A stretch of DNA of 64,000 nucleotides from an uncultured Actinomycetes bacterium (GCA_963816455.1 CAWFKM010000021.1:14514-78513), one strand, 5' to 3'. Positions 1 through 64,000 are shown, counted from the first letter of the stretch. The notes: a model not told the origin generated them from the letters alone. Translations and numbers: made by a program.

Positions 1-847
1 ACGACTTCATCGCGCTGATGCAGGAGAACTACGGGGCGTCGATGTCGGCGCCCGAGTTCGACTGGTGGTTTGACGCGAACCCTGCGGGGCCGCGCATCGT
101 CAACGAGGCGCGTGACGACGACGGCACGCCGCTCGGCGTGCTCGCGATGAGCGGTGCGGCGATGAGCGGCGGGCTCTCGGTGTTTGCCGTGCACGCCGTG
201 ACGACGCCTGCCGCGCGCGGCCGCGGCGTGTTCTCGGCGCTGAGCTGCACAACGAGGAGGACGCGGCGCGGGCGGGCGCGGCGTGGGCGCTCGGTTTCAC
301 GAATCCGATGGCCGGCCCGATCCTCGTCGGGAAGCTCGGGTGGGAGGACATCTGCTCGCTGCGGATCTGGGTGCGGCCGAAGCGGCTGCGCAAGCGCGGC
401 TCGGGCGCCTTGCGCGTGCCGGCTGCGTGTCCTCCGTTCGAGGCGCGGCACGAGACCTCGTTCGACGCGCAGCACATCGTGCGCGACGTCGGATACCTCG
501 ACTGGCGCTACGCGCAGTCGCCGCGCGGGTACCTGCGGATCGACGGCGATCGCGGCTGGGCGGTCGTGACGCACGCGGTGTGGCACGGCTACTCGTCGGC
601 GGTGATCTGCGATGCGGTCGGTGACGGATTGCCCTCGCTGCTCCGCCGCTGCGCGGGCGCCGTCGACGCAGACGTAGCAGTGGCGATGGTCAACCCCGGC
701 GAGGAAAGCTCGTATCTTGCGGCCGGCTTCTTCCCGACCCAGCGGAAGATCCGCTTCATCGGCAAGCGCCTCACCGCCGCCGCGCCGGAGCTTCCGAAGT
801 CCCGCAAGGCGTGGCGCTTCTCCCTCGGAGACCTGGACTTCTTCTAG
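1..847 (+). CDS. GNAT-type N-acetyltransferase; 5' end outside the window; one frame break near nt 242
   Basis: The frame is open from nt 3 (DFIALMQENYG..PEFDWWFDANPAGPRIVNE..AARGRGVFSAL, ORF 18..569). The peptide continues one base out of frame as ELHNEEDAARAGAAWALGFTNPMAGPILVGKLGW.. to the stop at 845-847 (ORF 308..847). The family call is from general resemblance only. Confidence 0.55.
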
Positions 848-877
848 CCGTCTCTCCGCGGCAGGGCTCAAACAGAC

Positions 878-903
878 ACGTCTCGGTGCCTGGCACCGGA
901 CGT
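878..903. repeat. Palindromic repeat, copy 1 (core GGTGCCTGGCACC)
   Basis: ACGTCTCGGTGCC-T-GGCACCGGACGT, about 30 nt after the GNAT stop. The arms are complementary apart from one extra T. The same core recurs at 975-987 and 28054-28066. Confidence 0.85.
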
Positions 904-965
904 CGCCTGCGGGCCATGCCGCGTGACCGCGTTGCCGCTATCCATGCGGAGACCGTTCGAATCGA

Positions 966-993
966 ACATGTCCTGGTGCCTGGCACCGGACGT
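966..993. repeat. Palindromic repeat, copy 2 (core GGTGCCTGGCACC)
   Basis: ACATGTCCTGGTGCC-T-GGCACCGGACGT. Its core lies exactly 90 nt after the copy 1 core. It is abutted by a second small palindrome, GTTCGA-A-TCGAAC (955-967). Confidence 0.85.
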
Positions 994-1086
994 GGCTCGC
1001 GGTGACGTGGTCGGTGGGGCACTGTCTCGGCGGGGCATGTGCGGATCGGTGCCCGGGGTTCCGGTTGCGTAGGCAAGCTGTGCACC

Positions 1087-2098
1087 GTGCGGCGGCTGAT
1101 CTTCGCGACGCAGAAGCTCGATCCGGGCGACCCGGTGCTGGGCGGCGACGGTGCCGATGCTGCGCGCGCTCGCTGCGCGCGTCGACGGCTCGTCGTGCTC
1201 TGCGACTCGGGGGTGCCGGTGGGGTGCCGGCGAACGCGCGAGCGCACGAGTTCGGCGCGCGTACGCAGGCACAGCGCGGCGCGAGGTTCACAGCGGCGCT
1301 CGCGCGGGAGCTGCGGCCGAAGCCGATCGGCGTCGTCGCGCACATGGTCCCGCTCTACGCGGTGCTCGCCGCGCCGCTGGTGCGGCCACTCGGGATGCCG
1401 CTCGTCCTCTGGTACACGCACTGGAAGGCGTCACTCCATCGTGCGCGCAGCGGGAAGGTCTGCACGGCGGTCGTCACCGTCGACCGGCGCTCGTTCCGCT
1501 CGCGTCGCCGAAGGTACGTCGGGATCGGCCACGGGATCGACCTGGCCGAGTTCGCCTGCACCGACGCGCCCCGCGCACGCACGGCCCGCTGCGCGCGCTC
1601 GCGCTCGGCCGCTACTCGCCGGCGAAGGGACTGCGAGACGGTGCTGCGCGGTGCGGCGCTAGCGGCGACGTCCGCGTCGAGGTCCACGGCTCGTCCGGCG
1701 ACGGCGAGGAGCGCGCGCACGAGCCGAGCTGGAGACGGGTTTGCTCGCGGGCTCGAGCGAAGGTGCGGCTCGGAGGACCGGTGCCGCGCGCCGAGATCCC
1801 CGCGCTGCTCGCGCAGAGCGACGTGCTCGTCAACAACATGCGCGCGGGCGCGCCGGACAAGGTCGTCTACGAGGCGGCCGCGACGTGCCTGCCGGTGCTC
1901 GCCTCGAACCCGGTCTTCGACGACCTGCTTCCCGACGAGCTTCGATTCGCGCGCGACGACGCCGGGGACCTCGCGAGCGCGCGCTGCGTCGCGCCGCTCG
2001 ACCGCGCGCGCTCGCCGCCGTCCTGCGCGAGCTCGTCGCGGAGCGGCCACTCGGTCGAGCACTGGGCCGACGCGGTGCTCGAGGCGGCCTCCCGATGA
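1087..2098 (+). pseudogene. GT4-family (GT-B fold) glycosyltransferase; at least 6 frame breaks as sequenced
   Basis: Collinear peptide VRRLIFATQKLDPGDPVLG / ATVPMLRALAARVD / LVVLCDSGVP / GVPANARAHEFGAR..VAHMVPLYAVLAAPLVRPLGMPLVLWYTHWKAS / PLASPKV / GIGHGIDLAEF / LALGRYSPAKGL / VRLGGPVPRAEIPALLAQSDVLVNNMRAGAPDKVVYEAAATCLPVLASNPVFDDLLP..HSVEHWADAVLEAA. It hops among all three forward frames (ORFs 1039, 1151, 1002). GTG at 1087; stop at 2096-2098. Confidence 0.7.
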
Positions 2099-2099
2099 G

Positions 2100-3192
2100 A
2101 TGCTCCTCCACCTCCAGAAGGTCGCCGGCATTTCCGGCTCGGAGGCGCACCTGCTCGCTCTGCTGCCGAGGTTGCGCGATCGGGGATGGGACGCGCGGAT
2201 GCTCATGCTGCACAGGGCGAACCGGGAGCGGGCGCGTTCGTTCGTGCGCTGCGCGAGCGCGAGGTTCCGGTCGAATCCCTGCACTTGCGCGCCGACGTCG
2301 ACCCGATCGCGTTCGTCCGGCTCACGGCGCGAATCGGACGAGCGCGCCCGCTGCTCGTCCACACCCACCTCGTCCACGCCGACGTGTTCGGCCTGCTCGC
2401 CGCGGCCGTCGCGGCGGCCGGTCCGCTTCTCGACCAAGCACGGCTTCAACGAGTTCCGCGAGCGGGAGTAGTTCGGGCCGATCGCTCCGCCGCCGCTCGC
2501 TGCGCACCGGCAGATCGCGATCTCGCATGGGCTGGCGCACTATCTGGCCGAGGACGAGGGCTTCGCGGAGGAGGAGCTTCGAGATCGTCCACTACGGGAT
2601 CGACGCCGGCGCCGAGCCCGACGCGCGCTCCCGAACGCGGCCGCCTGCTCTGCGTCGGCCGCCTGATCCCGATCAAGGGCCACATCGTGCTGCTGCGCGC
2701 GTTCGCCCGAGCGAAGCGCGACTTCCCCGACCTCCAGCTCGACATCGCCGGCCGCGGCCCGCTCGAGCCTGCGCTGAAGGCGGTCGCTGCCGAGCTCGGG
2801 ATCATCGACTCCGGTGCACTTCCTCGGCCACGTCAACCCGATCCAGGGCGCAGATCGAGCAGGCCGCCGTCGTCGTCGTCCCGTCGTTGGGCGAGGGCTT
2901 CGGGATGGTCGCGCTCGAGGCGATGGAGCGCGCGCGTCCTGTGATCGCCGCCGCGATCGGCGGGCTCGGCGAGCTCGTCCGCGACGGCGAGACCGGCGTG
3001 CTCGTCCCCGCAGGCGAGGCGGAGCCGCTGCGCGACGCGATCGTCCGCATCGCCGGCGACCTCGAGCTCGCGCGCCGGATGGGCGAGGCGGGACGACGGC
3101 GTGCACTCTCGCGCTTCCTGCAGCAGTTCTGCACCGACCGCACCGAGCTGCTGTACCGCGGCGCGCTCGAGTACCCCGGCGGTGACCGATGA
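2100..3192 (+). pseudogene. GT4-family glycosyltransferase; at least 5 frame breaks as sequenced
   Basis: MLLHLQKVAGISGSEAHLLALLPRLRDRGWDARMLMLH (ORF 1002 frame). FVRALREREVPVESLHLRADVDPIAFVRL..LLVHTHLVHADVFG (ORF 2186). FEIVHYGIDAG (ORF 1741). RLLCVGRLIPIKGHIVLLRAFARAKRDFPDLQLDIAGRGPLEPALK (2186). VHFLGHVNPIQ (2814). VVVVPSLGEGFGMVALEAMERARPVIAAAIGGLGELVRDGETGVLV to the stop at 3190-3192 (1741). The last block is a classic GT4 E-x7-E block. Confidence 0.75.
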
Positions 3193-3792
3193 CGAAGTCG
3201 GAGTTGCTTGCGCGTGTGCCGCCGCTGTACCGCGTTGCGCACGCGTTGAAGGACTGGCGGTACGAGCGAACGCACGAGCCGATGAGGCAGAAGCACGGAC
3301 TTCTACGCGATGCAGCGCGTCGCCATGGACTTCGCGTCCTCGTCGAGACGGGCACGTATACGGGCGAGACGGCGTGGGCGCTTCGACGCGAATTCGATCG
3401 CATCGATACGATCGAGCTCGAGCCGCGCCTCGCGCATCTCGCTCGCATCCGCTTCGCGCGGACGCCGTCGGTCCACCTGCATGAGGGCGACAGCGCGGCA
3501 GTGCTGCCCGTGATCCTCGAGTCGCTCGACCGTCCGGCGCTGTTCTGGCTCGACGCGCACCCGTCTACCGATAGATCCGCCAGGGACGCGCCGGTGCCGC
3601 TGGCCGCCGAGCTGGCCGCGATCGCGGCACATCCCGTCGCCGGTCATGTCGTGGTCGTCGACGACCTTCGGCTTGCTCGGCAAAGCCGGGTTTCCATCGC
3701 CCGAGGACATTTCGCTGCCGGGTTATCGGCTCGAGCAGGTGGGGGATGTCGGCGTGCTCGAGCCGACTGCGGTGATGACAGACTCACGTTGA
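3189..3792 (+). CDS. Class I SAM-dependent methyltransferase; one frame break near 3665
   Basis: The ATG at 3189 overlaps the upstream stop (ATGA). Peptide: GLRVLVETGTYTGETAWALRREFDRIDTIELEPRLAHLARIRF..VHLHEGDSAAVLPVILESLDRPALFWLDAH..HVVVVDD. It continues in another frame as FGLLGKAGFPSPEDISLPGYRLEQVGDVGVLEPTAVMTDSR to TGA 3790-3792. Confidence 0.7.
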
Positions 3793-4426
3793 TGAGCGAC
3801 GCCGAGGCGAAATACGATTCTCTCGCCGACTCGTGGAGCGGTGGCGCGTACGCCAACCCGTCGTGCTTCTATCGCCGCCGCGCGGATGTCGTCGCGGCGC
3901 TCGGTGGGAAGCTTCGGCCCGGAGCGAAGATCCTCGAGCTTGGGTGCGCCGACGGCGGTCTCTCCGAGGTTCTCGTTGCAGACGGGTACGTCCTCGAAGG
4001 CATGGACGTCAGCACGCGCATGATCGAGCTTGCGCGGCGACGCGTGCCCCATGGCGCCACGTTCGGCGTCGGCGATCTGAACACGTACGCGCCTCCGGAG
4101 CCGGTGGCGGCAACGATCGGGTTTCGGGTTCTCCCGTACGTCGACGATCTGGCTGCGTTCTTCGCGCACGCCGCGTCGTACTCGACGGAGAAGATCGTCT
4201 TCGACCTCGTTCCCAGCACAGGTGCCGAACGCTCGCGGCGGTCCGCTCTGCGCTCGGAGCCGCGGGCCTGGAGCGGGTCGACGTGCACCCGTGGCTGCTG
4301 CCGGCGCGGACGGCGATCCCACGCATCGGAATGTCGCTCGTCTCGGGGCTCGAGCGTGTGCGGCCGGTCGCGCTCGCAATCACCCGCCGCCGGTTCTCTG
4401 TCGTCGTCGCAGCTTCGACGCGCTAA
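3792..4426 (+). CDS. Class I SAM-dependent methyltransferase (Methyltransf_11/25-like); one frame break near 4228
   Basis: The ATG at 3792 shares one base with the preceding TGA (TGATG). Peptide: MSDAEAKYDSLADSWSGGAYANP..GAKILELGCADGGLSEVLVADGYVLEGMDVSTRMIELARRRVPHGATFGVGDL (GxGxG SAM motif). The C-terminus continues in the ORF 3833..4426 frame (LAAVRSALGAAGLERVDVHPWLLPARTAIP..). Confidence 0.7.
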
Positions 4427-5483
4427 GCGCTCGACCAGCGTCGCGTAGAGCGACCGGGTTCGCGTCGGCCATCCGCGCGACGGAGAACTCGGAGTGCGCC
4501 CGCGCCCGGCCCGCGTCGCCGAGCGACGGCTGTTCGAGCGCGCGCGCGACGCCAAGCGCGAGTGCGGCCGGGTCGTCGGGCGGCACGAGGAAGCCCGTCT
4601 CGCCGTCGACGACCAGCTCCGGCAGCGAGCTCACGTTCGACGCGACGACGGGCAGGCCCGCGAGCATCGCCTCGAGGACGGCGAGACCGAACCCTTCCCA
4701 GCGCGCGGGGTGGACGAGCAGCGTCGCGCGCCGCAGCCACGCGGCGACGTCGGGCACGCGCCCCGGCAGGAACACGCGGCCGTCGACGCCGAGCTCGCGC
4801 GCGAGCGACTCGAGCGCATCGCGCTCCGGGCCTTCGCCGAGCACGACGAGCACCGTGTCGTCGGGCAGCGAGTCGAGCGCGCGGATGGCGACGTCGATCC
4901 CCTTCTGCTCCGTCAGCCGCGACACGGCGAGCAGCACGCGCACGCCGTCAGGCACCGCGTCTGCCGGGTTCTCGCCCCACGGCTCCGGCAGATCGTCGAG
5001 CCCGTAGTGGATCGTCTCGACCTTCGCCTCCGGGATCCCGACCTTCTCGACCGTGAACCGGTGCAGGGCGTCGGTGATCGTCACCACGCGGTCGGCAAAG
5101 CGCGTGACCCCGCGCTCGACGTGGCGGAACGGGCCGAGCCGGAACGGATCGTCGTTGTGCTTCGTCGAGACGAGCCGCTCGCCCCGCAGCTTCGCCGCGA
5201 CGCCGCCGTAGACGTCTGCGTGCACGAGATGCGTATGCACGACGTCGGCGCGGAGCGACCGGACAAGCCGCGCCAGCAGCAGCGGGTCGACGTCGCGCGG
5301 CGACGGAATGCGAATCGCCGGCACGCGCAGCGCGCCGTAGAAGTCAGACGCATCCCACGCCGGGTCGTCGAGCCCGACGAGAACGGGCTCGACACCGCGC
5401 TCCGCGAGCGCCGGCAGCAGCGTCAAGAGGTGCCGCTCCGAGCCGCCGATGCCGCGGATGCGATGGACGTGGGCGACCCTCAC
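4380..5483 (-). CDS. GT4-family glycosyltransferase
   Basis: ORF 4380..5546. The likely start is GTG 5483 (VRVAHVHRIRGIGGSERHLLTLLPALAERG). Peptide: LVHTHLVHADVYG..STKHNDDPFR..VLLAVSRLTEQKGIDVAIRAL..LLVHPARWEGFGLAVLEAMLAGLPVVASNVSSLPELVVDGETGFLV. The last ~25 codons may be out of frame, because an alternative frame reads RTRSLYATLVERL. Confidence 0.8.
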   Translation of the reverse strand: MRVAHVHRIRGIGGSERHLLTLLPALAERGVEPVLVGLDDPAWDASDFYGALRVPAIRIPSPRDVDPLLLARLVRSLRADVVHTHLVHADVYGGVAAKLRGERLVSTKHNDDPFRLGPFRHVERGVTRFADRVVTITDALHRFTVEKVGIPEAKVETIHYGLDDLPEPWGENPADAVPDGVRVLLAVSRLTEQKGIDVAIRALDSLPDDTVLVVLGEGPERDALESLARELGVDGRVFLPGRVPDVAAWLRRATLLVHPARWEGFGLAVLEAMLAGLPVVASNVSSLPELVVDGETGFLVPPDDPAALALGVARALEQPSLGDAGRARAHSEFSVARMADANPVALRDAGRALSASKLRRRQRTGGG

Positions 5484-6775
5484 GACGTGCGCCGCTCCTG
5501 CCACCATTCGCCAGCCGCGCTTCAACGTCGCCGTCGCGAGCAGCACGACGAGGAAGTCCCAGCGCGACGCGGTAGCGCGTCGCCCCGACGAACACCGCGG
5601 CGCAGAGACTCTGGTACGCGAGTAGCAGCAGCGCGAGCGCGACGAACGCGCGCGGGGCCAAGAAGAGCCCGCCGATCGCGAGGACGTAGACCACGGACAT
5701 GTACGCCGGCTCGACGACGCGGCGCCCGATGTCGAGGCTTGTGCCTTGTCCGGGCCGCCCGCTCGTCTCGAAGGCGTTCGGCTGCCAGAGCAGCTTCATC
5801 GACAAGCGCCGCGAGCTTCGCCTTGTTCCCCGGATGCTCGCGCCAGTACTGCCGCGTCAGATGTTCGTAGAACGACATCTCGACGCATTCGTTCGGATAG
5901 TGCGCAATCGCGTACGACGGCGGCACGCCGGGCTTGACGTAGTAGCCGTACGCGTCCTCCGGCGTCAGCCGGTTCGGAGCCGGCGGCCGCGGCGAGTTCG
6001 ACGCGATGTTGTCGATCCACTCGCCGGAGCTGAGCAGGCCGTACGTCTGCAGGTTGTTCGCCTTCCACAGCGCGCGGCCGTCCGTCGTCAGCGTCACGCA
6101 CCCGAGCTGGACCTTGTTGCGGACGAGCCACGGCGTCACGGCAGCGGCCGCACCGGCGAGCACGAGCGCCGCCACGATCGCCGTCGCGCGCGCGCGCGGC
6201 AGGCGCCACGCGAGATAGCCGGCGCAGATGACCGGCACGAAAACGAGCCGCGTGTTGCCGAGGATCGCGAGCCCGGTGACGATCCCGAGCAGCGCGGCGA
6301 GCTTCTTCGACGGCCGCTCCGCGACCATCAGCGTCAGCAGCACGAGCGCCGCCGCGCAGACCTGGTCGACGATCTCGCGGTTCACATGCATGTCGTGCCA
6401 GATCAGGTACGGGTTGATCGTCGCGAGCGCGGCGCCGAGGAGGCCCCAGCGCGGGCCGAGGACCCGGCGGCCGATCTCGTAGACGAGCCAGCACGTCACG
6501 ATCGCGAGCGCGAGCTGCGCGAGGCCGACCGATTCCCAGCTTCGCCCGAAGATCCAGTAGACCGGGATCAGGAACCAGCCGTAAAGCGGCTGGGTGGCCG
6601 CCGACGGCTCGCCGGGGATGAAGCCGAACGTCCCGTGCTGGACGAACGTCAGCGCAAAGACGTCGCTCTTCTCGGTGAACGCGGAGAGGATCGTGTCGCG
6701 CTCGCGGACGAGCACCGCAAGGCGCGGAACCGCGCAGACGACGGCGAGCAGCGGATACGCGAGCCGGCGCCTCAC
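5480..6775 (-). CDS. GT-C-like (GT39/ArnT-like) integral membrane glycosyltransferase; 2-3 frame breaks (about 5800, 5560, 5520)
   Basis: The GTG at 6775 overlaps the asnB-like stop (GTGA). The body lies in the ORF 5522..9085 frame (VRRRLAYPLLAVVCAVPRLAVLV..QPLYGWFLIPVYWIFGRSWESVGLAQ..HPGNKAKLAAL). It continues in the ORF 5344..5805 frame (SMKLLWQPNAFE..VGATRYRVA) and then as WDFLVVLLATATLK. It is collinear with, and clearly similar to, the intact paralogue at 9231..10520. The 3' end is uncertain; a TGA at 5480-5482 overlaps the next GTG. Confidence 0.7.
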
Positions 6776-8653
6776 GGCACGGAAACGGGCGCGGCCGCCT
6801 CGACGTGCGTCCGCTGCCACAGCTCGAGCATGCAGAGCGTCCACAGCGCGTGCCCGTGGTCTGCGCGCTCGGACGCGTGCTCGGCAAGCAGCCGCTCGAC
6901 CGCGTCGGCGCGGAACCAGCCGCGGTTCCGCGCGCGCTCGTCGAGGAGCAGCTCGCGCGCGAGTGGACGCAGCTCGCCGCGGAACCAGCGCGCGAGCGGG
7001 ACCGCGAAACCGGTCTTGCCGCGTCCCGCGACGGGCGGCGGCAGCTCCGCGGCAAACGCGCGCCGCAGCGCGACCTTCGTCGTCCTCCCCTGGCTCTTCA
7101 GCTGATCCGGGAGCGAGAGGCCGAGCTCGACGACGCGGTGATCGAGCAGCGGCGAGCGCAGCTCGAGCGAGTGCGCCATCGACGCGATGTCGGACTTCGG
7201 GAGCAGGTCGCCGGGAAGGTACGTCGCGAGGTCGAGCTGCTGGAGGCCGGCGATTCCCGCGCGCGGAGGCGGCCCGAGCAGGATCCCGGGCGACGCGAGC
7301 GGGCCGATCTCCGCCTTCGCCTCGTCCGTCCAGAGATCGGCGCGCGTTGCGAGCGGGACGACCTGCATCAGCCGCCCGTAGCGCTCCGCGCGCGGCACCG
7401 CGGCCGCCTCGAGGAAGCGCGCCGCGCGGAACACCGGCGAGCGCCGCTCGCGCCGCCCAGACGGGATCGCGCGCAGCAGCCGCGCACCCGCCGACGCCGC
7501 GGACGCCGGGACCCGCTCGGCGAGATCGACCGCGGCGTAGCGCTCGTAGCCGGCGAACGACTCGTCGCCGCCGTCGCCGACGAGCGCGACCGTCACCTCG
7601 CGGCGCGCCGCCTCGCAGATCAGGAACAGCGGCAGCGCGGCCTCGTCGCCGAGCGGCTCGTCGAACGCGGCAGCGAGCCGCGGCAGCGTCGCGGCGGCAT
7701 CCGGCTCGAGCACGATCTCCTCGTGCCGCGTCGAGTACCGGTCCGCGACGGCGCGCGCGAACGTCCGCTCGTCGTAGCGGTCGTCCGAGAAGCCGACGGT
7801 GAACGTCCGCACCGGCTCCGCGGACGCGCCCGCCATCAGCGCGACGACGACGGCGGAGTCGATCCCGCCGGACAACAGCGCGCCGAGCGGCACGTCGCGA
7901 CGCGAGCCGCTTCGTCACCGCCGCCGTCACCTCGTCGCGTACGCGCTCCAGCCAGTGCTCGTCCGCGAGCGGCTCGTCCTCGACTTGCGGCTCCCAGTAG
8001 CGCTCGATCCGCTCGCCGTCGCCCTCCGCGACGAGGATCGACCCGGGCGCGAGCCGGTGGATCCCGCGAAGTCCGGTCCGCTCGCCGGGGACGTACTGGA
8101 GCGCGAGATACGCGTCGAGTGCGGCGAGGTCCGGCTCGCGCCGCAGACCCGGCAGCTCGAGCAGCGCCTTCAGCTCCGACGCGAACGCGAGCGTCCCGTC
8201 GTCGAGCCGCGTCCAGACGAGCGGCTTCTTGCCGAGCCGGTCGCGCGCGAGCACGAGCCGGCGGCGTGGGCCGTCCCAGAGCGCGATCGCGAACATCCCC
8301 TCGAGGCGCTCGACGAAGCGCGGCCCGTATTCCTCGTAGAGGTGCGGGATCACCGGCGTGTCGCCGCGCCCGCGAACTTCGTGGCCCTTCGCGGCAAGGT
8401 CGCGCCGGAGCTCGGGGAAGTTGTAGAGCTCGCCGTTGAAGACCGCGACGACGTCGCCCTGCTCGTTCGCGACGGGCTGGTAGCCGAGCTCCGGGTCGAG
8501 CACCTGGAGCCGCTGGTGGCCGAGGACGCACGGGCCGAGCTCCTCGGTCCCGCCCTGGTCCGGTCCGCGGTGGCGGATCCGTGCGCGCATTGCGTCGACG
8601 AGCGCCGCCGGCGGCTGCCCGGACGCCGCATAGAGGCCGCAGATCCCGCACAT
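6772..8653 (-). CDS. asnB: Asparagine synthase (glutamine-hydrolysing)-family amidotransferase; one frame break near 7900
   Basis: N-terminal nucleophile start MCGICGLYAASG..HRGPDQGG..VFNGELYNFPELR (ORF 5522..9085 frame, ATG at 8653). The synthetase domain follows: PLGALLSGGIDSAVVVALM..FTVGFSDDRYDE..DGGDESFAGYERY (ORF 6772..7893). Confidence 0.85.
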
Positions 8654-20264: not shown

Positions 20265-20266
20265 CG

Positions 20267-22895: not shown

Positions 22896-22942
22896 CGGCC
22901 AAGGGTATCGCGGGACCGTTACGGAACCGTGAGCGTCCGGCT

Positions 22943-41651: not shown

Positions 41652-41697
41652 GACGAGGGGGGCCGGGGGAGTTCACGCCGGGGCTAGTCTAGGCCGC

Positions 41698-48433: not shown

Positions 48434-48462
48434 GCCTGCCCGCACGCGGCTAGGCTCTCGCC

Positions 48463-51568: not shown

Positions 51569-51588
51569 ATACGCGGGATAATCGATCG

Positions 51589-53876: not shown

Positions 53877-53957
53877 CAGCTAGCACCGTACTTTCCCGAA
53901 TCACGGCTCAGAACGGCCGCGGATTCCGCCGGGCGTCCGTGTCGCCAGCATTCGCAC

Positions 53958-54275: not shown

Positions 54276-54592
54276 GCAGAATCGCCGTCGTCGTCCCGAT
54301 CCGGCCCGGAGCGTACGAGGCGGCGCGCACGCTTGTCGAGAGCGGCCCGCCGTTCCGGCTCGAGGACACGCCGCTCGACGGCCATTGCGTCTACCTCACC
54401 GAGTACGAGGCGGTCTTCGTGTTCGAGGGGCCCGAGGCGCGCGCCGTCGTCGAGCAGCTCGTCGGCGAGTCGTCGCTGTGGCGCGCGGCGAACGAATGGC
54501 GCGCGTGCCTCGACGGCAAGCCGCGCGTCGCCGACACCGCGTTCGCGTGGCGGAAGGATGCCGCCGCGCCGTTTCACGTTCCGGGGCTCTAG
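54272..54592 (+). CDS. Hypothetical small protein (106 aa)
   Basis: ATG at 54272 in the ORF 54032..54592 frame. MSRIAVVVPIRPGAYEAARTLVESGPPFRLEDTPLDGHCVYLTEYEAVFVFEGPEARAVVEQLVGESSLWRAANEWRACLDGKPRVA. Confidence 0.5.
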   Translation: MSRIAVVVPIRPGAYEAARTLVESGPPFRLEDTPLDGHCVYLTEYEAVFVFEGPEARAVVEQLVGESSLWRAANEWRACLDGKPRVADTAFAWRKDAAAPFHVPGL

Positions 54593-54915
54593 CTAGCTCT
54601 CGCGCCCGAGCCGCGCTCGAACAGCACGAGCACGGCGAGGTGCTCGTACGCGACGAAGCGGTGGTCGGCACCGGCCTCGACGAAGACGGCGTCACCTAGC
54701 TTCACCGGCGTGTCGACGCCGTCGACCTGGAGGATGCCCTCGCCGTCGAGGACGACGTAGATCTCGTCGTCCTCGTGCGGCTGCTGCTTGTCGGCTTCCG
54801 GCGCGACGAGCACGTAGACGCCGAGCTCGACTCCGGGCGACTCGTGGACGATCTCGTAGCCGCCGCCGGCAGCCCGGAGCTTCTCGACGACCGCTGCGAC
54901 GCCGAACGCATGCAC
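54589..54915 (-). CDS. Cupin-domain protein; intact
   Basis: 108-aa ORF. ..GVELGVYVLVAPEADKQQPHEDDEIYVVLDGEGILQVDGVDTPVKLGDAVFVEAGADHRFV. This is the typical two-motif cupin pattern (H-x-D/E .. G .. H). Confidence 0.7.
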   Translation of the reverse strand: MHAFGVAAVVEKLRAAGGGYEIVHESPGVELGVYVLVAPEADKQQPHEDDEIYVVLDGEGILQVDGVDTPVKLGDAVFVEAGADHRFVAYEHLAVLVLFERGSGARAS

Positions 54916-54937
54916 GACGTGGACGCTATCGAACGCG

Positions 54938-55575
54938 CTAGACCTCGGTGGTCTCGTGCACCTCGATCGAGACGACGCCCGGGACGAGGGACACGCGCCG
55001 GATCAGCAGGTCGCGATCCTCATCCTTACGCGAAGTGCCCGGCGACCGAGACTTCGCCGCGCGTCACGGTCAGCTGGAAGTCCTCCGGGCGGAGCCAGAG
55101 CTCGTGCAGGAGTACCTCGTCGCGGATCTCGCGGATGATCTCGTCGTCGGTGTGGACGAATGCGCGGACGAGATCGGCGCGCGTGACGATCCCGACGAGC
55201 AGGCCCTGCTCGTCGACGACGGGAAGCCGGTTCACGCTGCGGTCGAGCATCAGCGACGCCGCCACGTCGACGCGCCGCGATCCCTTCACCGTCACCGCCG
55301 GCGAAGTCATCGCCTCCGCCGCAGTCGTCGCGGTCCGCTTCGCGTCGTCTCCGTCGTGCCGGTGGAGCCATCCGGTCGAGCTTCGTCGGCTTCGCGGACC
55401 GGCGCTCCTTCTGGAGGATGTCGGCCTCGCTGACGACGCCGAGCACCAGGCCGTCGCCGTCGACGACCGGCATTCCGGAGATCCCGCGTGCGGTGAGCAT
55501 CTCGGCGACCTCTTTCAGCGAGGTCTCCGGCGTGACCGTGAGCACCTTCGTTGTCATGACGTCTGCGATTCTCAT
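54938..55575 (-). CDS. CBS-pair + BON domain protein; frame breaks near 55372 and 55026
   Basis: The ATG at 55575 is preceded by AAGGAGAG. MRIADVMTTKVLTVTPETSLKEVAEMLTARGISGMPVVDGDGLVLGVVSEADILQKE.. (ORF 55003..55674 frame). AMTSPAVTVKGSRRVDVAASLMLDRSVNRLPVVDEQGLLVGIVTRADLVRAF..LTVTRGEVSVAGHFA (ORF 55026..55310). KDEDRDLLIRRVSLVPGVVSIEVHETTEV to TAG 54938-54940. Confidence 0.7.
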
Positions 55576-55589
55576 GGCTCTCCTTCGGT

Positions 55590-58232
55590 TCACCAGGTCT
55601 TGGTCGTCGTGCGGCGCGGAGGCCGCGCGACCCTGACGCGCGCGTCGACGCAAAGCAGCGGTCGGCGAGTGCAAGGACGGGATTGAGGTCGAGCTCGGCG
55701 ATCTCCGGGAAGTCGTCGGCGAGCTTCGCGAGGCGGAGCAGGAGGTCGACGAGCGCCTCCTCGTCCGCCGGCGGCGTGCCGCGGAAGCCCGCGACGAGGC
55801 GGCCGGCCTTGCCGCCGCGGACGAGATCGCTCGCGTCGAGGTCGGTGAGCGGCGCGAGCCGGAACTGCGCCTGGCCGATCAGCTCCGCGAGGACGCCGCC
55901 CGGCCCGAACGCGACGAGCGGCCCGAAGACGGGATCCTGCACCGCGCCGGCGAGGAGCTCGGCGCCGCCGGCGATCATCGGCTGGACGAGCACCGGCGAG
56001 CCGATCCGCTCGGCGGCCGCGCGCACCTCCGCCTCGTCGGCGAGATTCAGCGCGACGCCGCCCGACTCGGTCTTGTGCGCGCCGGCGGCTGCGCTCTTGA
56101 CGACGACGGGGAAGCCGAGCTCGCGTGCGGCCGCGACAGCCTCGTCGGTCGAGCCGGCGACGCGCTCCGGGACGACCGGCAGCCCGTACGCCTCGAGGAG
56201 CGCGCGCGTCGCGGCCGGGTCGAGCCAGGCGTCGTCGGCGGCGCCGAGCGCGTCCGCGACGACGGCTTCCGCCGCGGCGCGATCGACGTCGAGCTCCGGG
56301 ATCGTGCCGGGCGGACGGCGCAGCCAGTCGCCGCGCTCCGCGGCGCGGCCGAGCGCCCGCGCGGCGGCTTCGGGATACGAGAACGACGGCACCTGCGCGG
56401 CGCTGCGCAGTGACGCGGGCGCGCCCCTCGCGCTGAGGAACGCGCAGAGTACGGTCTTGTCGCCGGCGCCGACTGCGGCGCTGCTGATCGCGGCGCCGAC
56501 CTCGTCCTCGTCGACGCCGACGGTCGGGACGAACAGGACGATCACCGCGTCGATTCCGGGATCGGCGAAGCACGACCGGCAGCACGTCGCGGAAGCTCTT
56601 CGCGTTCGCGGAGCCGAGCATGTCGACCGGGTTCGCGCTGCTGCCCTCCGTCGGCATCACGGCGGCGAGCGCGTGCCGCGTGCTCTCGGCGAGTGTCGGC
56701 AGGTCGAGTCCCGCCGCCTCGCAGGCGTCGGCGCAGAGGATGCCGAGCCCGCCCGCGTTCGTGACGAGCGCGACGCGCCGGCCGCGCGGCACCGGCTGCG
56801 CGGAGAGGAGCGACGCGACCTCGACGAGCTCGTCGAGCGTCCGCGTCCGGATCACGCCGGCCTGGTGGAAGAGCGCGTCGACCGCGGCCTCCGACCCGGC
56901 GAGCGCTGCGGTGTGCGAGCTCGCGGCCTTGCTCCCGGCGTGCGTCGTGCCGCCCTTCACGGCGAGGATCGGCTTCGTGCGCGCGACGCGCCGCGCGATG
57001 CGCGCGAACGCGCGCGGGTTGCCGAACGACTCGAGGTAGAGCAGCACGATCTCCGTCGCCGGGTCGTCCTCCCACCATTCGAGGAGGTCGTTCGACGAGA
57101 CGTCGGCCTTGTTTCCGATCGAGACGAACGCCGACAGGCCGAGCCCGCTCGCTTCCGCGCGCTCCAGCACCGCGAGCCCGAGCGCGCCGCTCTGCGACGA
57201 GAAGCCGATGTTCCCGGTCGGAAACGCGCGCGGCGCGAACGTCGCGTTGAGCCGGACCGCGGCGGACGCGATGCCGAGGCAGTTCGGGCCGACGATCCGC
57301 GCGCCGTGCTCGCGCGCGAGCTCGACCAGCCGCTCCTGGCGCCGCCGGCCCTCGGCGCCGATCTCGGCGAAGCCGGCGGAGATGACGCAGAGCGCGCGGA
57401 CGCCGGCCTCGAGCGCTTCCTGCGCTGCGCCGAGCACGTGCTCGCCGGGCAGGCAGATCACGGCGAGATCGACCTGCTCCGGGATGTCGGCGACGCACGA
57501 GTAGCCGCGGACGCCGGCCACCGGCTCGCCGCCGCGGTTGACGGGATAGGCCGCGCCGGAGAAGTCTCCGGCGAGGACGTTGCGGAAGAGCTCGCCGCCG
57601 ATCGAGCCGCGCCGCGCGGACGCGCCGATCACGGCCACGCACGACGGCGCGAAGAATCCCTTCAGCGACGCGGTGACCGCGACGTGGTTCCGCTCCGCGA
57701 CGCGATCGCGGTAGAGCTCTGTCGCTGCGATCGGGAAGCGAACCTCGACCGCGCCGCCGTCGAGCTCGCGCACGATGTCGAAGCCGGCGTCACGGAAGAC
57801 GAGCAGCATCGGACGGTTCTCCGGGAGCACCTCGGCGACGAACTCCTCGATCCCGGCATCCGCCGCCAGCGCGACGAGGCGCTCGAGCAGGCGGGTGCCG
57901 ATGCCGCGGCCCTGGTGCTCGTCGTCGACGGTGAACGCGACCTCGGCGGCGCGGCGGTTGCGCAGCCGCGCGTAGTTGGCGAGAGCGACGATGCGTCCGT
58001 CGAGACACCCGATCAGCGCGCCGCGCTCGTCCCAGTCCGGCTCGACGAACGACTCGACGAGCTTCGGCGAGAGATGCGGGAAGCCGTGGAAGCGCAGGTA
58101 ACGGCTCCGGTCGGAGAGGCGGCCGAAGAAGTCGAGGACGGCCTCGGCGTCGGCGGCGAGCGGCGGCCGCAGTCGCAGCGTCGTGCCGTCGCGGAGGATC
58201 ACGTCTTCGGGATCGTGAGTCAGTGCGCTCAT
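55590..58232 (-). CDS. Pat-type protein acetyltransferase: N-terminal GNAT fused to an NDP-forming acyl-CoA synthetase-like domain (CoA-binding, ligase-CoA, ATP-grasp); frame breaks near 56560 and 55650
   Basis: ORF 55590..58232. ..[61 protein letters not shown] (GNAT). ..[59 protein letters not shown]... It continues in ORF 55307..56545 ([56 protein letters not shown]). The tail returns to the first frame (VDARVRV..). Confidence 0.8.
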
Positions 58233-58323
58233 GTCGCACCTCCAATGCTCGTTGTCGGCCCGCTGACCTGCATCGTGGCACCCGCCGACGCATTTCGCGG
58301 CTTTTCCGCACTACGCTCCTGCT

Positions 58324-58915
58324 ATGGACGAGCGCGACCTCGACCCGGACCCGCTGCGGCAGCTCGCGGCGCTGGTTCGAGGAGGCGCGCGCCGTCGTCC
58401 GCGCGCCGGAGGCGATGGCACTCGCGACCGCGGACGCGAGCGGCTCGCCGTCGGTGCGGATGGTGCTGCTGAAGGGCTTCGACGAGTCGGGCCTCGTCTT
58501 CTACACCAATGTGACGAGCCGGAAGGGGGCGGAGCTCGACGCGAACCCGCGCGCGGCGCTGCTCCTCCACTGGGATCCGCTCGGGCGCCAGGTGCGGGTC
58601 GAGGGCCGGGTCGAACGCGTGTCGGCGGAGGAGTCCGACGCGTACTTCGCGGGCCGGCCGCGCGGCGCGCAGATCGGCGCGCACGCGTCGGATCAGAGCT
58701 CGGTCATCGCCGATCGCGCCGAGCTCGAGCGCCGCGTCGAGGCGGCCGAGCGCGCGTTCGAGGGCGCCGACGTCCCGCGGCCGGAGAGCTGGGGCGGCTA
58801 CCGCGTCGTCCCGGACGCGTGGGAGTTCTGGCAGCACCGCGACAGCCGCCTCCACGACCGCTTCCGCTACACGCGCGACGGCGCCGGCTGGCGCATCGAG
58901 CGGCTCGCGCCCTAG
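58324..58915 (+). CDS. pdxH: Pyridoxamine 5'-phosphate oxidase; one frame break near 58372
   Basis: [15 protein letters not shown] (ORF 58324). Then [134 protein letters not shown] (ORF 58223..58915). Confidence 0.9.
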
Positions 58916-60263: not shown

Positions 60264-61653
60264 GTGGCGGTCACCGCCGACCTGCGCGAGGAGCTGCTCC
60301 GGCTGATCCCGGACGAGCGGCGCGTGAGCGACGGCGAGTCCGTTCTCGACCAGCACGCGGGCGATCTCAGCTATCACCGGCCGCGCCGTCCCGACGTCGT
60401 CGTCTTCCCGGAGTCGACCGCAGAGGTCGCGGCGGTGCTCGAGTACGCAGACCGCGCCGGAGTGCCCGTCGTCCCGTTCGGCGCGGGGTCGAGCCTCGAG
60501 GGGCATGTGATTCCGCTGCACGGCGGGATCTCGCTCGACCTGACGCGGCTGAACCGGATCGTCGCGTTGTACGCCGACGATCTCAGCGTGGTCGTCCAGC
60601 CGGGAGTGACGCGCTCGCAGCTCGCGGAGGCCGCGGGTCCGCACGGGCTGTTCTTCCCCGTCGACCCGGGCGCGGACGCGACGCTCGGTGGAATGGCCGC
60701 GACGAACGCGAGCGGAACGACGACCGTCCGCTACGGCGGGATGCGCACGCACGTGCTCGCGCTCGAGGTCGCGCTCGCCGGCGGGCGCGTCGTGCGCACC
60801 GGCACGCGCGCGGTGAAGACGTCCGCGGGCTACAACCTGACGAATCTCTTCATCGGCTCGGAGGGGACGCTCGGCGTGATCACCGAGCTGACGCTGCGCC
60901 TGCATCCGATTCCCGACCGCTCTGTCGTCGCCCGCGCTGCGTTTCCGTCCGTCGAGGCGGCGTGCCGTGCGGCGGCGGCGCTCGTCGGCGCGGGCGTTCT
61001 CCTCACGCGCTGCGAGCTGCTCGACGCGACGACGATCGGCGCGCTGAACGCCTACAAGGGGACGACGTTCCCGGAGTCGCCGTATCTCTTCGTCGAGTTC
61101 GGCGGCAGCGAGGCCGCCGTCGCCGCCGATCTCGAGGCGGCGCGCGAGATCGCGGCGGACGAGGGCGCGTCGGCGTTCGAGAGCGAGAGCGACCCGACGG
61201 CGCGCGCGCGGATGTGGGACGCGCGCCACAACGCGCTGCACGCGTCGCTCGCGCTCGCGCCGGGCTCGCGCGCGATGACGACGGACGTCGCGGTGCCGGT
61301 GTCGCAGCTCGCGGGCGCGATGGAGCACGCGCGCTCGGCGCTCGACGCGTCAGGGCTTCGCGGCGGCATCGTCGGCCACGCCGGCGACGGCAACTTTCAC
61401 GTCGCGTTCCTGCTGGATCCGGACGACGCGGGCGTCGATCGCGCGCGCGGAGAAGCTGAACACGGCGGTCGTCGAGGACGCACTCGCGCGCGGCGGCACC
61501 TGCACCGGCGAGCACGGCGTCGGCTTCGGCAAGCTCGCGTATCTCGAGAAGGAGCACGGCGACACTCTGCCGCTGATGCGCGGGATCAAGGAGTTACTCG
61601 ACCCGAACGGGATCATGAACCCCGGGAAGGTGATCCCCGCCCCCGTCGCGTGA
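60264..61653 (+). CDS. FAD-linked oxidase (GlcD / D-lactate dehydrogenase family); one frame break near 61440
   Basis: ORF 60264..61790. ..PDVVVFPESTAEVAAVLEYADRAGVPVVPFGAGSSLEGH..VVVQPGVTRSQL..FFPVDPGADATLGGMAATNASGTTTVRYGGMR..KTSAGYNLTNLFIGSEGTLGVITELTLRL..GHAGDGNFHV. Then EKLNTAVVEDALARGGTCTGEHGVGFGKLAYLEKEHGDTLPLMRGIKELLDPNGIMNPGKVI to TGA 61651-61653. Confidence 0.85.
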
Positions 61654-61718: not shown

Positions 61719-61729
61719 CGCGCGAGCCG

Positions 61730-62191
61730 TTACTCGCCGGCGAGGCGGCGCAGCGCACTCTCGCGGCCGCGCTCCATCGTCCAGTTGTGATTCGAGCGAA
61801 ACAGCGGACGCAACACGGGGGAGAGCTGCTTGACGCCGGCCTTCTGAACCGACGGACGCCAGTCGAGCTGCGCGCGCGTGCCGTCGCCCTCGCGTTGGAG
61901 GAGCCAGGTGCCGGTGCCTTCGAAGTCGCCGTCGAGCCGCGAGTGGATCCGGTACGGACGCTCGACCTCGAGTGTCGTCAGCGAGAAGTGCAGCCGGTAC
62001 GGCAGGAAACCGCGCGCCTCGACCGAGACCTTCTTCCCCGGTGCCGGATCGCCGCCGTCGCCGTTCGCGGCGACGAACACTGCGCCCCACCAGTTCGGGT
62101 AGTCGAGCGGATGGCCGACGAGGTCGTAGACGCGTTCGATGTCCGCCGGCAGATGCCACTCGTCGAGGAAGCGGTACTCGCAGCGCTGCAA
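61730..62191 (-). CDS. SRPBCC-superfamily (START/polyketide cyclase-like) protein
   Basis: C-terminal 153 codons of ORF 61730..63346, from the TTG at 62191. LQRCEYRFLDEWHLPADIERVYDLVGHPLDYPNWWGAVFVAANGDGG..VSVEARGFLPYRLHFSLTTLEVERPYRIHSRLDGDFEGTGTWLLQREGDGTRAQLDW. It could instead be a C-terminal domain of the patatin, since no stop separates them. Confidence 0.6.
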   Translation of the reverse strand: MQRCEYRFLDEWHLPADIERVYDLVGHPLDYPNWWGAVFVAANGDGGDPAPGKKVSVEARGFLPYRLHFSLTTLEVERPYRIHSRLDGDFEGTGTWLLQREGDGTRAQLDWRPSVQKAGVKQLSPVLRPLFRSNHNWTMERGRESALRRLAGE

Positions 62192-63346
62192 GCCGAACCG
62201 CTCCGCTCGCGCAGCTCTCCGCGTCGCGCAGCCGCGTGAGCGTCGTAGCCGCGCGCGATCAGCTCGCGCTTCGCGTCGTCGCTCCACGGCTTCGGGTTGC
62301 GCAGCCCGGCTTCGAGGCTGACCGCGCCCGGGCCGGCGGAGACTGCGATGCGCGGGACGAGCCGGTCGGTGCCGAACGGGAATCGCGCAGCCGCGAAGCG
62401 CTCGTCGACGGCGGCGGCGACGCGCGTGCCGCGGCGTCCGCCCTCGCGCTTCACGATCGCCGCAACGTCCTCCCGCAGCGCGGCGAGCGCGGCGATCGCC
62501 TGGTCCTTCTCGACCGCCGCGCGCTCCTCGAGGATCGTGTTCTGCTGGACGGCGACACGCATCAGGCGCACGATCATGTCGCCCCAGTGCGCCGGCTCGC
62601 CGCGCGCGTCGCGTTCCTCCGCCTCGCGCAGCTCGTCGATCAGCGCGCGCACCGGCGGCAGCTTCGGGAAGCGCTCGAGCCGGTGGCGCAGCCGCGATGA
62701 GCCCGTCGGAGGAGAAGCGCGGATAGCTCGGCAGGTAGCGGAAGCTCACGATCAGCTCGACGCCCGGCTGGTCGTACGCGTAGCCGAGCGGGAAGTTCCG
62801 CACCCACGCGCCGTCGGTCGCGATCTTCTCGCCGATCGGCCGCGGCAGCACAAGCGCACTGATCGCCGCCGACGCGAGCACGGCCTGCGCGAAGATCTCC
62901 GGCGGCGTCGTGCGCGCGGAGTACGCGAGCTCGTATGCGCGGGCGCCCGCGTCGTGCTCGACGCCCGTCACGTCGGTCGCGCAGACGACGAGCTCGATCG
63001 GCGCCGTCGCGAGCTTGCGCGCCATCTCGACCAGCTTCCCGACCCGCTCGTCGATCGTCTCGGGCAGCCGGTAGTCGTGCGTGCCGAGGAGCGGCAGCCG
63101 CCAGAGCGAGTGCGGCCGGAACACGTCGTTCGGCTGCAGGCCGAGCATGAACTCCTCGAGATCGTCGAGCCGGTCGAGCGCGGCCATCATGCCGCAGAGC
63201 GCGCCGGCGGATGTGCCGTAGATCCAGCCGACGCGCGGCCAGATCGCGCTCTCGCGCAGGCGCTTCAGGAAGCCGAGCTCCAGCAGCACGCCGTTGACGG
63301 CGCCGCCGGAGAGGACGAGCGCGACGTCGGGTTCCATCCGACTCAT
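62192..63346 (-). CDS. Patatin-like phospholipase; one frame break near 62695; 3' end undefined
   Basis: ATG at 63346. MSRMEPDVALVLSGGAVNGVLLELGFL, serine motif IYGTSAGALCGMMAA, Asp motif IATDGAWVRNFP (ORF 61730..63346 frame). Then RLRHRLERFPKLPPVRALIDELREAEERDARGEP..AKRELIARGYDA (ORF 61978..62652). All three frames are stop-free from about 62300 to 61978. Confidence 0.7.
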
Positions 63347-63360
63347 GGTACGTAGACACC

Positions 63361-63960
63361 GTGGATCCGGCGTTCGTCGACGAGCAGATCGATCTCGCGG
63401 GCCGGCGGCTCTCGCTGCTCCGGCCGCCGAGCGCGGACGCGCTCATCGACGAGGACGCCTTCGACGAGGACGAGTTCCTGCCGTACTGGGCCGAGCTCTG
63501 GCCGAGCGGGCTCGCGCTCGCGCGCGCGGTCGCGACGCTCGACCTGCGCGGCGCGCGCGTGCTCGAGCTCGGCGCCGGCCTCGGGCTGCCGTCGCTCGCG
63601 GCGGCACTTGGCGGCGCGGACGTCCTCGCGACCGACTGGGCCGACGACGCGATCGAGCTGCTGCGGCGCAACGCGGAGCGGAACGGGATCGCGCTCCGCG
63701 CGGAGTCCGTCCGCTGGGACGAGCCGGAGCCGCTGCTGCGCGAGGCGCGGTGGTCGCTCGTGCTCGGCGCGGATCTCCTCTACGAGCGACGCAACGCCGA
63801 CCAGCTGCTCGAGCTGCTGCCGCAGCTCGGCGGCGACGCGCTGCTCGCGGATCCCGGCCGGCCGTTCGCGAAGGGCTTCGTCGAGCGCGCGACCGCCCGC
63901 TGGGACGTCGCAACGGAGACGGAAGGGACGATGGTCCTGCACCGCTTGCGGCTACGGTGA
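63361..63960 (+). CDS. Class I SAM-dependent methyltransferase (Methyltransf_16 / protein-lysine methyltransferase-like); intact
   Basis: 199-aa ORF. ..FLPYWAELWPSGLALARAVATLDLRGARVLELGAGLGLPSLAAALGGADVLATDWADDAIELLRRNAERNG..VLGADLLYERRNADQLLELL. Confidence 0.75.
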   Translation: MDPAFVDEQIDLAGRRLSLLRPPSADALIDEDAFDEDEFLPYWAELWPSGLALARAVATLDLRGARVLELGAGLGLPSLAAALGGADVLATDWADDAIELLRRNAERNGIALRAESVRWDEPEPLLREARWSLVLGADLLYERRNADQLLELLPQLGGDALLADPGRPFAKGFVERATARWDVATETEGTMVLHRLRLR

Positions 63961-64000
63961 CGCGATGCTCGCCGCCCTCCTCGCCGCGCTCGCGCTGGCC

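Follow-up and report, generated by a model that had tools for sequence, protein, structure and literature searches.

Reading-frame breaks in a 64 kb stretch of a soil actinomycete draft genome are probably consensus errors

The window analysed here, a stretch of 64,000 nt from a draft metagenome-assembled genome of an uncultured soil Actinomycetes bacterium (G000), carries about 75–77 breaks of reading frame inside its genes. These breaks are confirmed as real features of the sequence as given, and we consider it highly probable (roughly 94%) that they are consensus errors of the draft assembly and not mutations of the organism. The first-pass annotation had preferred the same reading, assembly or polishing error with perhaps a few real pseudogenes, and it is supported by breaks that are private to the window, are purely small indels, lie in genes still under purifying selection and extend throughout the genome, while the sister genome (G014, 92% identical to the window) and a contig of the same bin that duplicates part of the locus (C20) are broken elsewhere.

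An HMM based on GC3 periodicity split the 64 kb into 120 segments, and a calibrated junction test detected 39 frame-break-like junctions, compared with 4 in 80 kb of a good-quality relative (G015). Segments shorter than 60 nt are ignored by the HMM, so that dense patches are unseen in its junction counts, and tblastn HSP chains, which were ambiguous in a dense patch, were replaced by our own frameshift-aware alignment to intact orthologues. This alignment gave 51 events in 47 genes (44,601 nt), namely 39 insertions and 9 deletions of one base and 3 insertions of two bases, and a control alignment between good genomes gave 4 events in 33,990 nt. The window total of about 75–77 adds to these 51 the events from further alignments and the breaks at 7897, 54937, 55028 and 55369; no intact reference was found for the region 17,800–21,990, and its HMM switches (18092, 21719 and 21975) are left out of the count. 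Single Pfam domains likewise continue in another frame: URO-D (5–113, then 127–345), Ferrochelatase (1–198, then 202–316), CofD (1–152, then 162–255), F420_ligase (4–136, then 139–218) and FAD-oxidase_C (2–180, then 185–248). The breaks fall within single genes and far exceed the method background. The earlier figure of about 60 was modestly too low, with approximately 77 counted. Nine of its ten example positions were verified (242, 3665, 7900, 22125, 46565, 49570, 51020, 58372 and 61440), but the tenth, 15675, is a mere boundary between convergent genes. The housekeeping genes said to be affected (hemE, hemH, cofD, cofE, pdxH, and the fcl-like and asnB-like genes) each carry one or more events. 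The broken genes are listed below in 5' to 3' order, with the evidence for each in parentheses.

3..805, + strand: gene with one base missing at about 240–242 (one-base deletion at 240 by alignment; extra C in G014 at 242; HMM switch 242/243)
1087..2080, + strand: glycosyltransferase in hot patch 1, 8 events at 1141, 1187, 1219, 1431, 1453, 1584, 1634 and 1668 (intact G015 orthologue)
2090..3189, + strand: GT1-family glycosyltransferase in hot patch 1, about 8 events at 2214, 2414, 2478, 2498, 2574, 2638, 2813 and 2853 (intact C20 copy as reference)
3189..4448, + strand: ORF open by chance, with window-private extra bases at 3670, 3766, 4224–4225 and 4426 (three-way alignment of window, G014 and C20; G014 indels)
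4436..6778, − strand: one GT4/GT1 and one PMT_2 gene, insertions at about 4460, 5562 and 5804–5806 (alignment; inserted bases absent from G014)
6778..8635, − strand: asnB-like gene, extra G at 7897 between the GATase and Asn_synthase domains (HMM switch 7897/7898; Pfam domains in separate frames; G lacking in G014)
21998..22910, − strand: fcl-like NAD-dependent epimerase, extra C at 22127 (alignment; G014 intact there)
26799..29591, + strand: glycosyltransferase-plus-PMT_2 gene, one-base insertions at 27751 and 27784 that are private, and a +1 near 29222 common to G014 (alignment)
30145..32174, + strand: two glycosyltransferase genes, extra bases at 30349–30350, 30914–30917 and 32069–32072 (Pfam; alignment)
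34040..38084, − strand: two genes, events at 34220, about 35001, 35249, 36558 and about 37046–37076 (alignment)
38225..39124, + strand: Trm112p-like plus methyltransferase gene, extra bases at 38294–38296, 38697–38700 and 39046–39048 (alignment; soil-metagenome contigs one base shorter at 38697)
39127..40177, + strand: glycosyltransferase-like accessory gene forming hot patch 2, with 15 events over 1.05 kb (reference ORF from G053)
40186..40975, + strand: ABC-2 permease, extra A at 40837 (alignment; G014 indel comparison)
41689..42713, + strand: hemE (URO-D), one base too many at each of 42036 and 42085 (Pfam; alignment; G014 intact)
46106..46919, + strand: hemH (ferrochelatase), extra G at about 46567 (Pfam; alignment; soil contigs one base shorter at 46568)
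46937..48424, + strand: ABC ATPase followed by a small gene, extra bases at 47905, 48171 and 48244 (alignment; soil contigs one base shorter at 48171 and 48244)
49035..49962, + strand: cofD, one base missing at about 49558 (Pfam; alignment; placed by three-way alignment)
50588..51320, + strand: cofE (F420_ligase), extra C at about 51013 (Pfam; alignment)
51586..53223, + strand: GAF-GAF-HisKA_3 histidine kinase, hot patch 3, 7 events at 51700, 52145, 52182, 52315, 52554, 53020 and 53138 (three independent references)
54590..55612, − strand: Cupin and CBS-domain genes, events at 54937, 55028 and 55369 (called from HMM switches that coincide with 1-nt indels relative to G014)
55623..58229, − strand: GNAT / CoA-binding / ATP-grasp gene, one base missing at about 55654 and extra A at 56569 (Pfam; alignment; 0 events in G014)
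58318..58906, + strand: pdxH, extra C at 58367 (Pfam; alignment)
60264..61632, + strand: FAD-linked oxidase, extra G at 61430 (Pfam; alignment)
62284..63334, − strand: patatin-like gene, extra T at 62698 (alignment)

The breaks had been described as strongly clustered, and the spread is indeed uneven (chi-square of 94, where simulation gives 46 on average; Monte Carlo p = 0.00065), but the unevenness comes from hot genes only; once three of these are removed, the remaining 44 genes agree with a constant rate of 0.78/kb (p = 0.88), and the break-free genes of 1–1.5 kb that had been pointed out are therefore not surprising. The three dense regions were correctly named, although the load suggested for them, at least 5–6 breaks each, was too low: there are about 16 events in 1087–3189, 15 in 39127–40177 and 7 in 51586–53223. 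In the second gene of hot patch 1, the Glycos_transf_1 profile is matched at 18–73 and 91–172 in different frames. The gene of hot patch 2 was called non-coding by the HMM and is matched in 7 of the 61 genus genomes searched, G000 included; relative to the G053 reference it has no events in G031 and 7 in G014. A dispersion test on the HMM junctions within the window (variance-to-mean 0.73–0.98, no clustering) was discarded, since the HMM ignores segments below 60 nt and so misses the dense patches. Break density correlates with GC content (rho 0.31–0.50), a correlation to which the HMM's way of detecting frame may contribute.

Natural bacterial indels show a bias towards deletion and towards slippage at repeats. 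The spectrum in the window is different, with 42 insertions versus 9 deletions and with run lengths at insertion sites that equal the background: the extra base belongs to a run of 1, 2 or 3 identical bases in 22, 9 and 3 of 34 cases (background fractions 0.66, 0.27 and 0.06), and A or T was inserted in 11 of the 34. The inserted bases are not slippage products. That no slippery motif accompanies the breaks, as first reported, holds, and no homopolymer context was seen either; shifts do occur in both directions, but lopsidedly, about four-fifths being insertions. The typical residue of nanopore assembly is homopolymer deletion, and in this respect the window, with its dominant insertions and uninvolved homopolymers, is unlike errors of that type.

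Forty-five of the 51 events, including seven of the eight in the first gene of hot patch 1, coincide, within 9 nt and in matching direction, with an indel relative to G014, which keeps its frame at these places. G014 has numerous events of its own: on its contig C4, 28 genes (29,037 nt) have 76 single-base and 7 double-base insertions and 9 single-base deletions, and on C7, 24 genes (18,316 nt) have 16 single-base insertions, the rate rising from 0.87/kb on C7 to 3.2/kb on C4, two contigs that are adjacent by synteny. The counterparts of the two genes at 34040..38084 have 21 and 5 such events, and that of the histidine kinase has none. Per-gene loads in the window and G014 are uncorrelated over 44 genes (Spearman 0.18, p = 0.26 for counts; 0.09, p = 0.57 for rates). 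Contig C20, 92% identical to the window, duplicates 16 kb of the locus including hot patch 1; it carries 11 different events, and its copy of the glycosyltransferase gene hit hardest in the window is intact. In alignments with G014, C20, G015, G012 and G002, the break sites are not conserved. Only one of the 51 events, the +1 near 29222, is plausibly common to the window and G014, and it is at most this one break that is a candidate for a real change.

Contigs from other soil samples (sets X1–X4), which are relatives of the source organism and so give indirect evidence, restore the frame at several sites. Only their indels bear on the question; indel-free stretches, joints and loose ends count neither for nor against a break. 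Among the best-supported 12 of 134 indels between these contigs and the window, six fall on breaks and bring the reading back into frame (38697, 46568, 48171, 48244, 51695 and 53139, the last two in the histidine kinase gene), a seventh (38703) adjoins 38697, and the other five are frame-neutral. Support at 38697 is partial, with the deletion in 84.3 of 151 depth in X4 and in 0 of 13.6 in X2. Of the 22 sequencing runs compared with sampled words of the window, the best contains 0.18 of them and none contains half, so the source reads were not found among these runs.

No in-frame stop was found in 12,678 aligned residues. The only one reported, at 2469 (gene 2090..3189), between two indels of hot patch 1, is dubious and comes from the C20-based alignment. 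Substitutions relative to G014 favour codon position 3 (66% of 2,159), and most singly broken genes have 71–91% of their substitutions at this position in both parts; in the asnB-like gene the two halves give 84% and 91%. By these substitution patterns, the broken genes are still under purifying selection on both sides of their breaks. The usual signs of genome decay (nonsense mutations, larger deletions, relaxed selection) were not seen, as the indels are of 1–2 nt only and the third-position bias is kept.

The breaks extend well beyond the window. G000 has 1,796 frame-break-like junctions over all 22 contigs (0.54/kb), compared with 0.05/kb in G015 and 1.59/kb in G014. Among essential genes of G000, alaS is broken into at least three frames and secA into two, and the long genes rpoB, rpoC, gyrB and leuS are without breaks; the rpoBC region is 97.5–98% identical to that of G014, with 2+2 gap openings in 12,177 aligned columns. 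Break-free gaps longer than 10 kb number 43 genome-wide, with 8 expected. Selection against real frameshifts would give the same pattern of intact long essential genes and long break-free gaps. Completeness is 70.41% in 22 contigs for G000, 72% in 7 for G014 and 94% in 40 for G015, and the low marker completeness of the first two, despite few, long contigs, is what would be expected of an artefact.

Consensus indel errors of long-read assemblies resemble the breaks of the window in that single-base indels split conserved genes, raise the apparent numbers of genes and pseudogenes and lower marker completeness. Such errors are described as aggravated by low coverage and by regional heterogeneity (PMC8103633, PMC11017572, 10.1101/2021.08.23.457338). 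In PMC8103633, the completeness of two long-read genomes went up from about 85% to 94–95% after their frameshifts were corrected, with a greater effect at low coverage, and PMC11017572 attributes spurious pseudogenes to coverage, platform and assembler. The proovframe preprint (10.1101/2021.08.23.457338) links low abundance and local population heterogeneity to unpolishable regions, and gives approximately 8% insertions versus 3% deletions for raw PacBio reads.

If the breaks are consensus errors, noisy long reads at low depth would leave a uniform background of about 0.8 indels/kb, and patches of 4–14 indels/kb could form where depth fell to a read or two, or where related, co-occurring populations were mixed. 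Such patches would be likeliest in the strain-variable glycosyltransferase region, and the conserved core, such as rpoBC, would come out clean. Local low coverage is a candidate cause of the hot patches. The kinase patch (51586–53223) lies in a conserved gene, outside the reach of the heterogeneity argument. An artefact could also have taken its hot patches and insertion bias from a processing step and not from low depth, for example uneven polishing with short reads or against a reference, or a consensus drawn from mixed, related populations. The second copy of 16 kb with hot patch 1 in the bin indicates that related populations co-occurred at the locus, rpoBC is clean in G000 and G014 alike, insertions dominate in both, and the G014 rate jumps between adjacent contigs. 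At the level of sequence, a processing step has the same expectations as low depth, while a background that fits one uniform rate without the hot genes, and a dense patch in a conserved, single-copy-looking kinase gene, speak against it; we regard it as possible but rather unlikely.

Real, recent and massive pseudogenisation, with genuine frameshifts tolerated in non-essential genes, would fit the intact rpoB, rpoC, gyrB and leuS, the excess of break-free stretches over a uniform rate and the shift near 29222 common to two lineages. The resemblance to reductive evolution as in Mycobacterium leprae is that a high-GC genome of actinobacterial type has interruptions in many genes that look like housekeeping genes. 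Unlike such reduction, the window is without clear nonsense mutations, keeps its coding signal and its codon-position bias on either side of the breaks, and shares its breaks with the sister lineage in one possible case only, while the essential alaS and secA are affected. Moreover, hemE, hemH, cofD, cofE and pdxH are all hit in one window, insertions dominate away from homopolymers, 45 of 51 events are missing from a 92%-identical genome whose own events differ, and frames are restored in C20 and in independent soil contigs. We therefore consider pseudogenisation very improbable. Were the breaks real, this lineage and its sister would each have been gathering private, insertion-biased frameshifts in hundreds of genes, alaS and secA included, which is very improbable, and their survival would imply extremely recent decay or some frame-correcting decoding. 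Programmed recoding, whether by ribosomal frameshifting, transcriptional slippage or quadruplet decoding, would be consistent with broken genes that look functional, and nothing further was found in its favour. In prfB and dnaX, too, two frames together encode a functional protein, but their programmed sites are conserved across relatives and have slippery or stimulatory motifs, whereas the sites in the window are private and free of a common motif or homopolymer, include both +1 and −1 changes, and number up to 15 in one 1 kb gene. Its likelihood is close to nil.

Given that consensus errors are the preferred explanation, gene and pseudogene counts from G000 are not to be trusted until it is re-polished, and its 70% completeness is probably an underestimate. 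Calls of split or fused proteins and of pathway loss (haem, F420, PLP, GDP-fucose) are, like gene and pseudogene calls, unreliable for both G000 and G014, and counts from other genomes of the genus with few contigs and low completeness probably are as well. Protein fragments from such species representatives pass into public protein databases. G000 needs frameshift-aware annotation or re-polishing ahead of biological interpretation. If only the +1 near 29222 is real, a glycosyltransferase and PMT_2 gene of approximately 1,100 aa would be split; its counterpart in G015 is a single ORF of 1141 aa.

The studied Gaiellaceae draft metagenome-assembled genome (G000) comprises 3.32 Mb in 22 contigs with 70-74% G+C, and is 70.41% complete and 0.67% contaminated. 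Its closest relative among the genomes searched is the sister genome G014 (7 contigs, 72% complete), which matches the window at about 92% DNA identity along its full length via C4:26001-75015 and C7:98001-133164. Contig C4 terminates at about window position 38876, and synteny resumes on the reverse strand of C7. Good-quality but more distant references were available in G015 (40 contigs, 94% complete), G012 and G002 (91% each). Genome G001, flagged as unpublished, contributed only to tallies across genomes, and no other conclusion draws on it.

The window was segmented with an HMM of codon-position G+C that penalizes in-frame stops, giving 120 segments and about 1.7 coding segments per kb; the corresponding values were 1.06 for G015 (median 831 nt) and 2.77 for G014 (median 193.5 nt). 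When the 102 HMM fragments of the window were scanned against Pfam, single domains were found split across frames, in agreement with the first-pass annotation, which had seen proteins continuing in another frame.

Pfam domains split between frames in the window (profile positions)
URO-D: 5-113, then 127-345 in another frame
Ferrochelatase: 1-198, then 202-316 in another frame
CofD: 1-152, then 162-255 in another frame
F420_ligase: 4-136, then 139-218 in another frame
FAD-oxidase_C: 2-180, then 185-248 in another frame
Glycos_transf_1: 18-73, then 91-172 in another frame

A junction test, which counts same-strand frame switches where the upstream frame has no stop within 30 nt, returned 39 frame-break-like junctions in the window and 4 in 80 kb of G015. 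The observation of frame breaks is real.

The frameshift-aware comparison with orthologues that the first-pass annotation had called for was made by a custom frameshift-tolerant protein-to-DNA alignment, for which orthologue segments that stay in one frame in G015, G012 and G002 served as references. It detected 51 frame-changing indels (events) over 47 non-overlapping window genes (44,601 nt): 39 insertions and 9 deletions of one base, and 3 insertions of two bases, besides one 'stop' at 2469 within a very broken stretch. The good genomes, aligned to each other in the same way, showed 4 events over 33,990 nt, each close to a gene start. The gene at 2090-3189 shows about 8 events with the intact copy on C20, another G000 contig, as reference, but only 4 with that of G015; the gene at 39127-40177 shows 15 against an intact ORF of genome G053 (none in genome G031, and 7 in G014). 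Within the ORF at 3189-4448, a three-way comparison identified extra bases private to the window at 3670, 3766, 4224-4225 and 4426, and HMM switches at 7897, 54937, 55028 and 55369 match 1-nt indels relative to G014. The breaks previously estimated at about 60 are confirmed, but that count was low, the sum being about 77; nine of ten example positions were verified, while 15675 is the boundary of convergent genes.

Window and G014 differ by 233 + 129 indels, most of them single-base (203 + 101). For 45 of the 51 events there is a G014 indel no more than 9 nt away and in the correct direction, and the frame is kept in G014 there. Among the exceptions, 49575 corresponds to a one-base deletion at 49558 adjoining a real codon-length difference, 2644 is frame-equivalent to a neighbouring G014 indel, 35001 probably represents the indel of G014 at 34987, imprecisely placed (14 nt off), 1668 and 34220 lie within messy stretches, and 29222 is common to both genomes. 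G014 is itself broken elsewhere: 28 genes (29,037 nt) of C4 carry 76 insertions and 9 deletions of one base and 7 insertions of two bases, and 24 genes of C7, spanning 18,316 nt, carry 16 one-base insertions. Across the contig change at about 38876, the events of G014 drop from 3.2/kb (C4) to 0.87/kb (C7). The 44 genes common to both carry 43 events in the window and 93 in G014, and per-gene loads are uncorrelated (Spearman 0.18, p = 0.26 by count; 0.09, p = 0.57 by rate); a kinase gene has 7 events in the window and none in G014, and the gene at 34040-36266 has 3 and 21, respectively.

We attribute the breaks to consensus errors in a draft metagenome-assembled genome (probability about 0.94). 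Real pseudogenisation is contradicted by the tests run and is very improbable; recoding, contradicted likewise, is hardly credible at all. There were no in-frame stops in 12,678 window residues aligned to G015 proteins, and 2,159 coding-segment substitutions relative to G014 fall 21%, 14% and 66% at codon positions 1, 2 and 3. In most singly broken genes, 71-91% of substitutions are at position 3 in both parts (84% and 91% in the two parts of the asnB-like gene). For the 34 well-placed inserted bases, the run length is 1 in 22 cases, 2 in 9 and 3 in 3, against a background of 0.66, 0.27 and 0.06, and 11 of these bases are A or T. Natural indels are biased to deletions and repeats, and the indel spectrum of the window is the opposite.

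Of all the breaks, only the +1 shift near 29222, seen relative to G015 in window and G014 alike, is a candidate for a genuine mutation. The gene encodes a glycosyltransferase plus PMT_2, is a single 1141-aa ORF in G015, and retains third-position substitution bias 3' of the shift, which could be a real gene split, an ancestral frameshift or an identical error made twice.

The uneven spread of breaks described in the first-pass annotation was borne out, per-gene counts being heterogeneous (chi-square 94, simulated mean 46, p = 0.00065). Once three hot genes are set aside, the remaining 44 are consistent with a uniform rate of 0.78/kb (p = 0.88), under which 30-45% of genes of 1-1.5 kb should be clean, so the clean genes that had been taken as a sign of non-uniformity need no special explanation.

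Hot patches, with dense events
1087-3189: patch 1, about 16 events, 7.6/kb
39127-40177: patch 2, 15 events, 14/kb
51586-53223: patch 3 (the kinase gene), 7 events, 4.3/kb

Patch 1 lies within a stretch that has a second, 92%-identical copy (C20) in the bin. Patch 2 is an accessory gene that adjoins the end of C4 and has a match in 7 of the 61 searched genomes of the genus (G000 among the 7). Both patches may reflect locally heterogeneous populations or shallow read depth in flexible regions, while the conserved core would have better effective depth; the C20 copy and the accessory status of patch 2 fit this, but the kinase patch is not accounted for. Such behaviour is described in passages of PMC8103633, PMC11017572 and the preprint 10.1101/2021.08.23.457338, the introduction of which also quotes PacBio raw errors as rich in insertions.

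C20 (16,184 nt) aligns over its full length, reversed, with C21:6635-22816 at 91.8% identity and 209 gap openings, and has 11 events of its own at sites different from those of the window. The matching stretch covers window 1-8303; with G014, C20 shares 89-91% identity. Either the glycosyltransferase region is truly duplicated, or C20 is a haplotig from a related population that ended up in the same bin. Contigs of four public soil metagenomes, from relatives and not the source sample, were compared with 38001-58000. Among the best-supported 12 of 134 indels, six fall on break sites, where they restore the frame (38697, 46568, 48171, 48244, 51695 and 53139), a seventh (38703) adjoins 38697, and the remaining five leave the frame unchanged (two +1/-1 pairs and a 3-nt insertion). 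Support at 38697 is partial: 84.3 of 151 depth in contig set X4 and 0 of 13.6 in X2.

Across all 22 G000 contigs there are 1.18-2.41 coding segments per kb, and the junction test gave 1,796 frame-break-like junctions in total (0.54/kb); with C21 at 0.62/kb, the window is typical of G000. The alaS gene is spread over at least three frames and secA over two, and rpoB, rpoC, gyrB and leuS are unbroken. Junctions have a variance-to-mean ratio of 2.0-3.7, and 43 gaps of more than 10 kb lack them (8 expected), including a clean 19.6 kb around rpoBC, where 12,177 aligned columns of G000 and G014 show 97.5-98% identity and 2+2 gap openings. Junction density increases with local G+C (Spearman 0.31-0.50 by bin size), a trend that may stem from biased detection by the GC3-based HMM or from a true composition dependence of the errors.

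The gene content is what would be expected of a genome resembling that of a soil actinobacterium. In 1-39000, glycosyltransferase, PMT_2, sugar-epimerase and asnB-like genes form a large cluster, and an F420 biosynthesis set (CofC-like, CofD, F420-dependent oxidoreductase and CofE) lies at 48469-51556, with hemE and hemH nearby. A 240-nt intergenic insert at 848-1087, missing from G014 and 99.3% identical in C20, contains a near-palindromic 19-mer twice (885 and 975). This 19-mer occurs 22 times in G000 (up to 2 mismatches), often paired about 90-115 nt apart, and looks like a REP- or MITE-type element.
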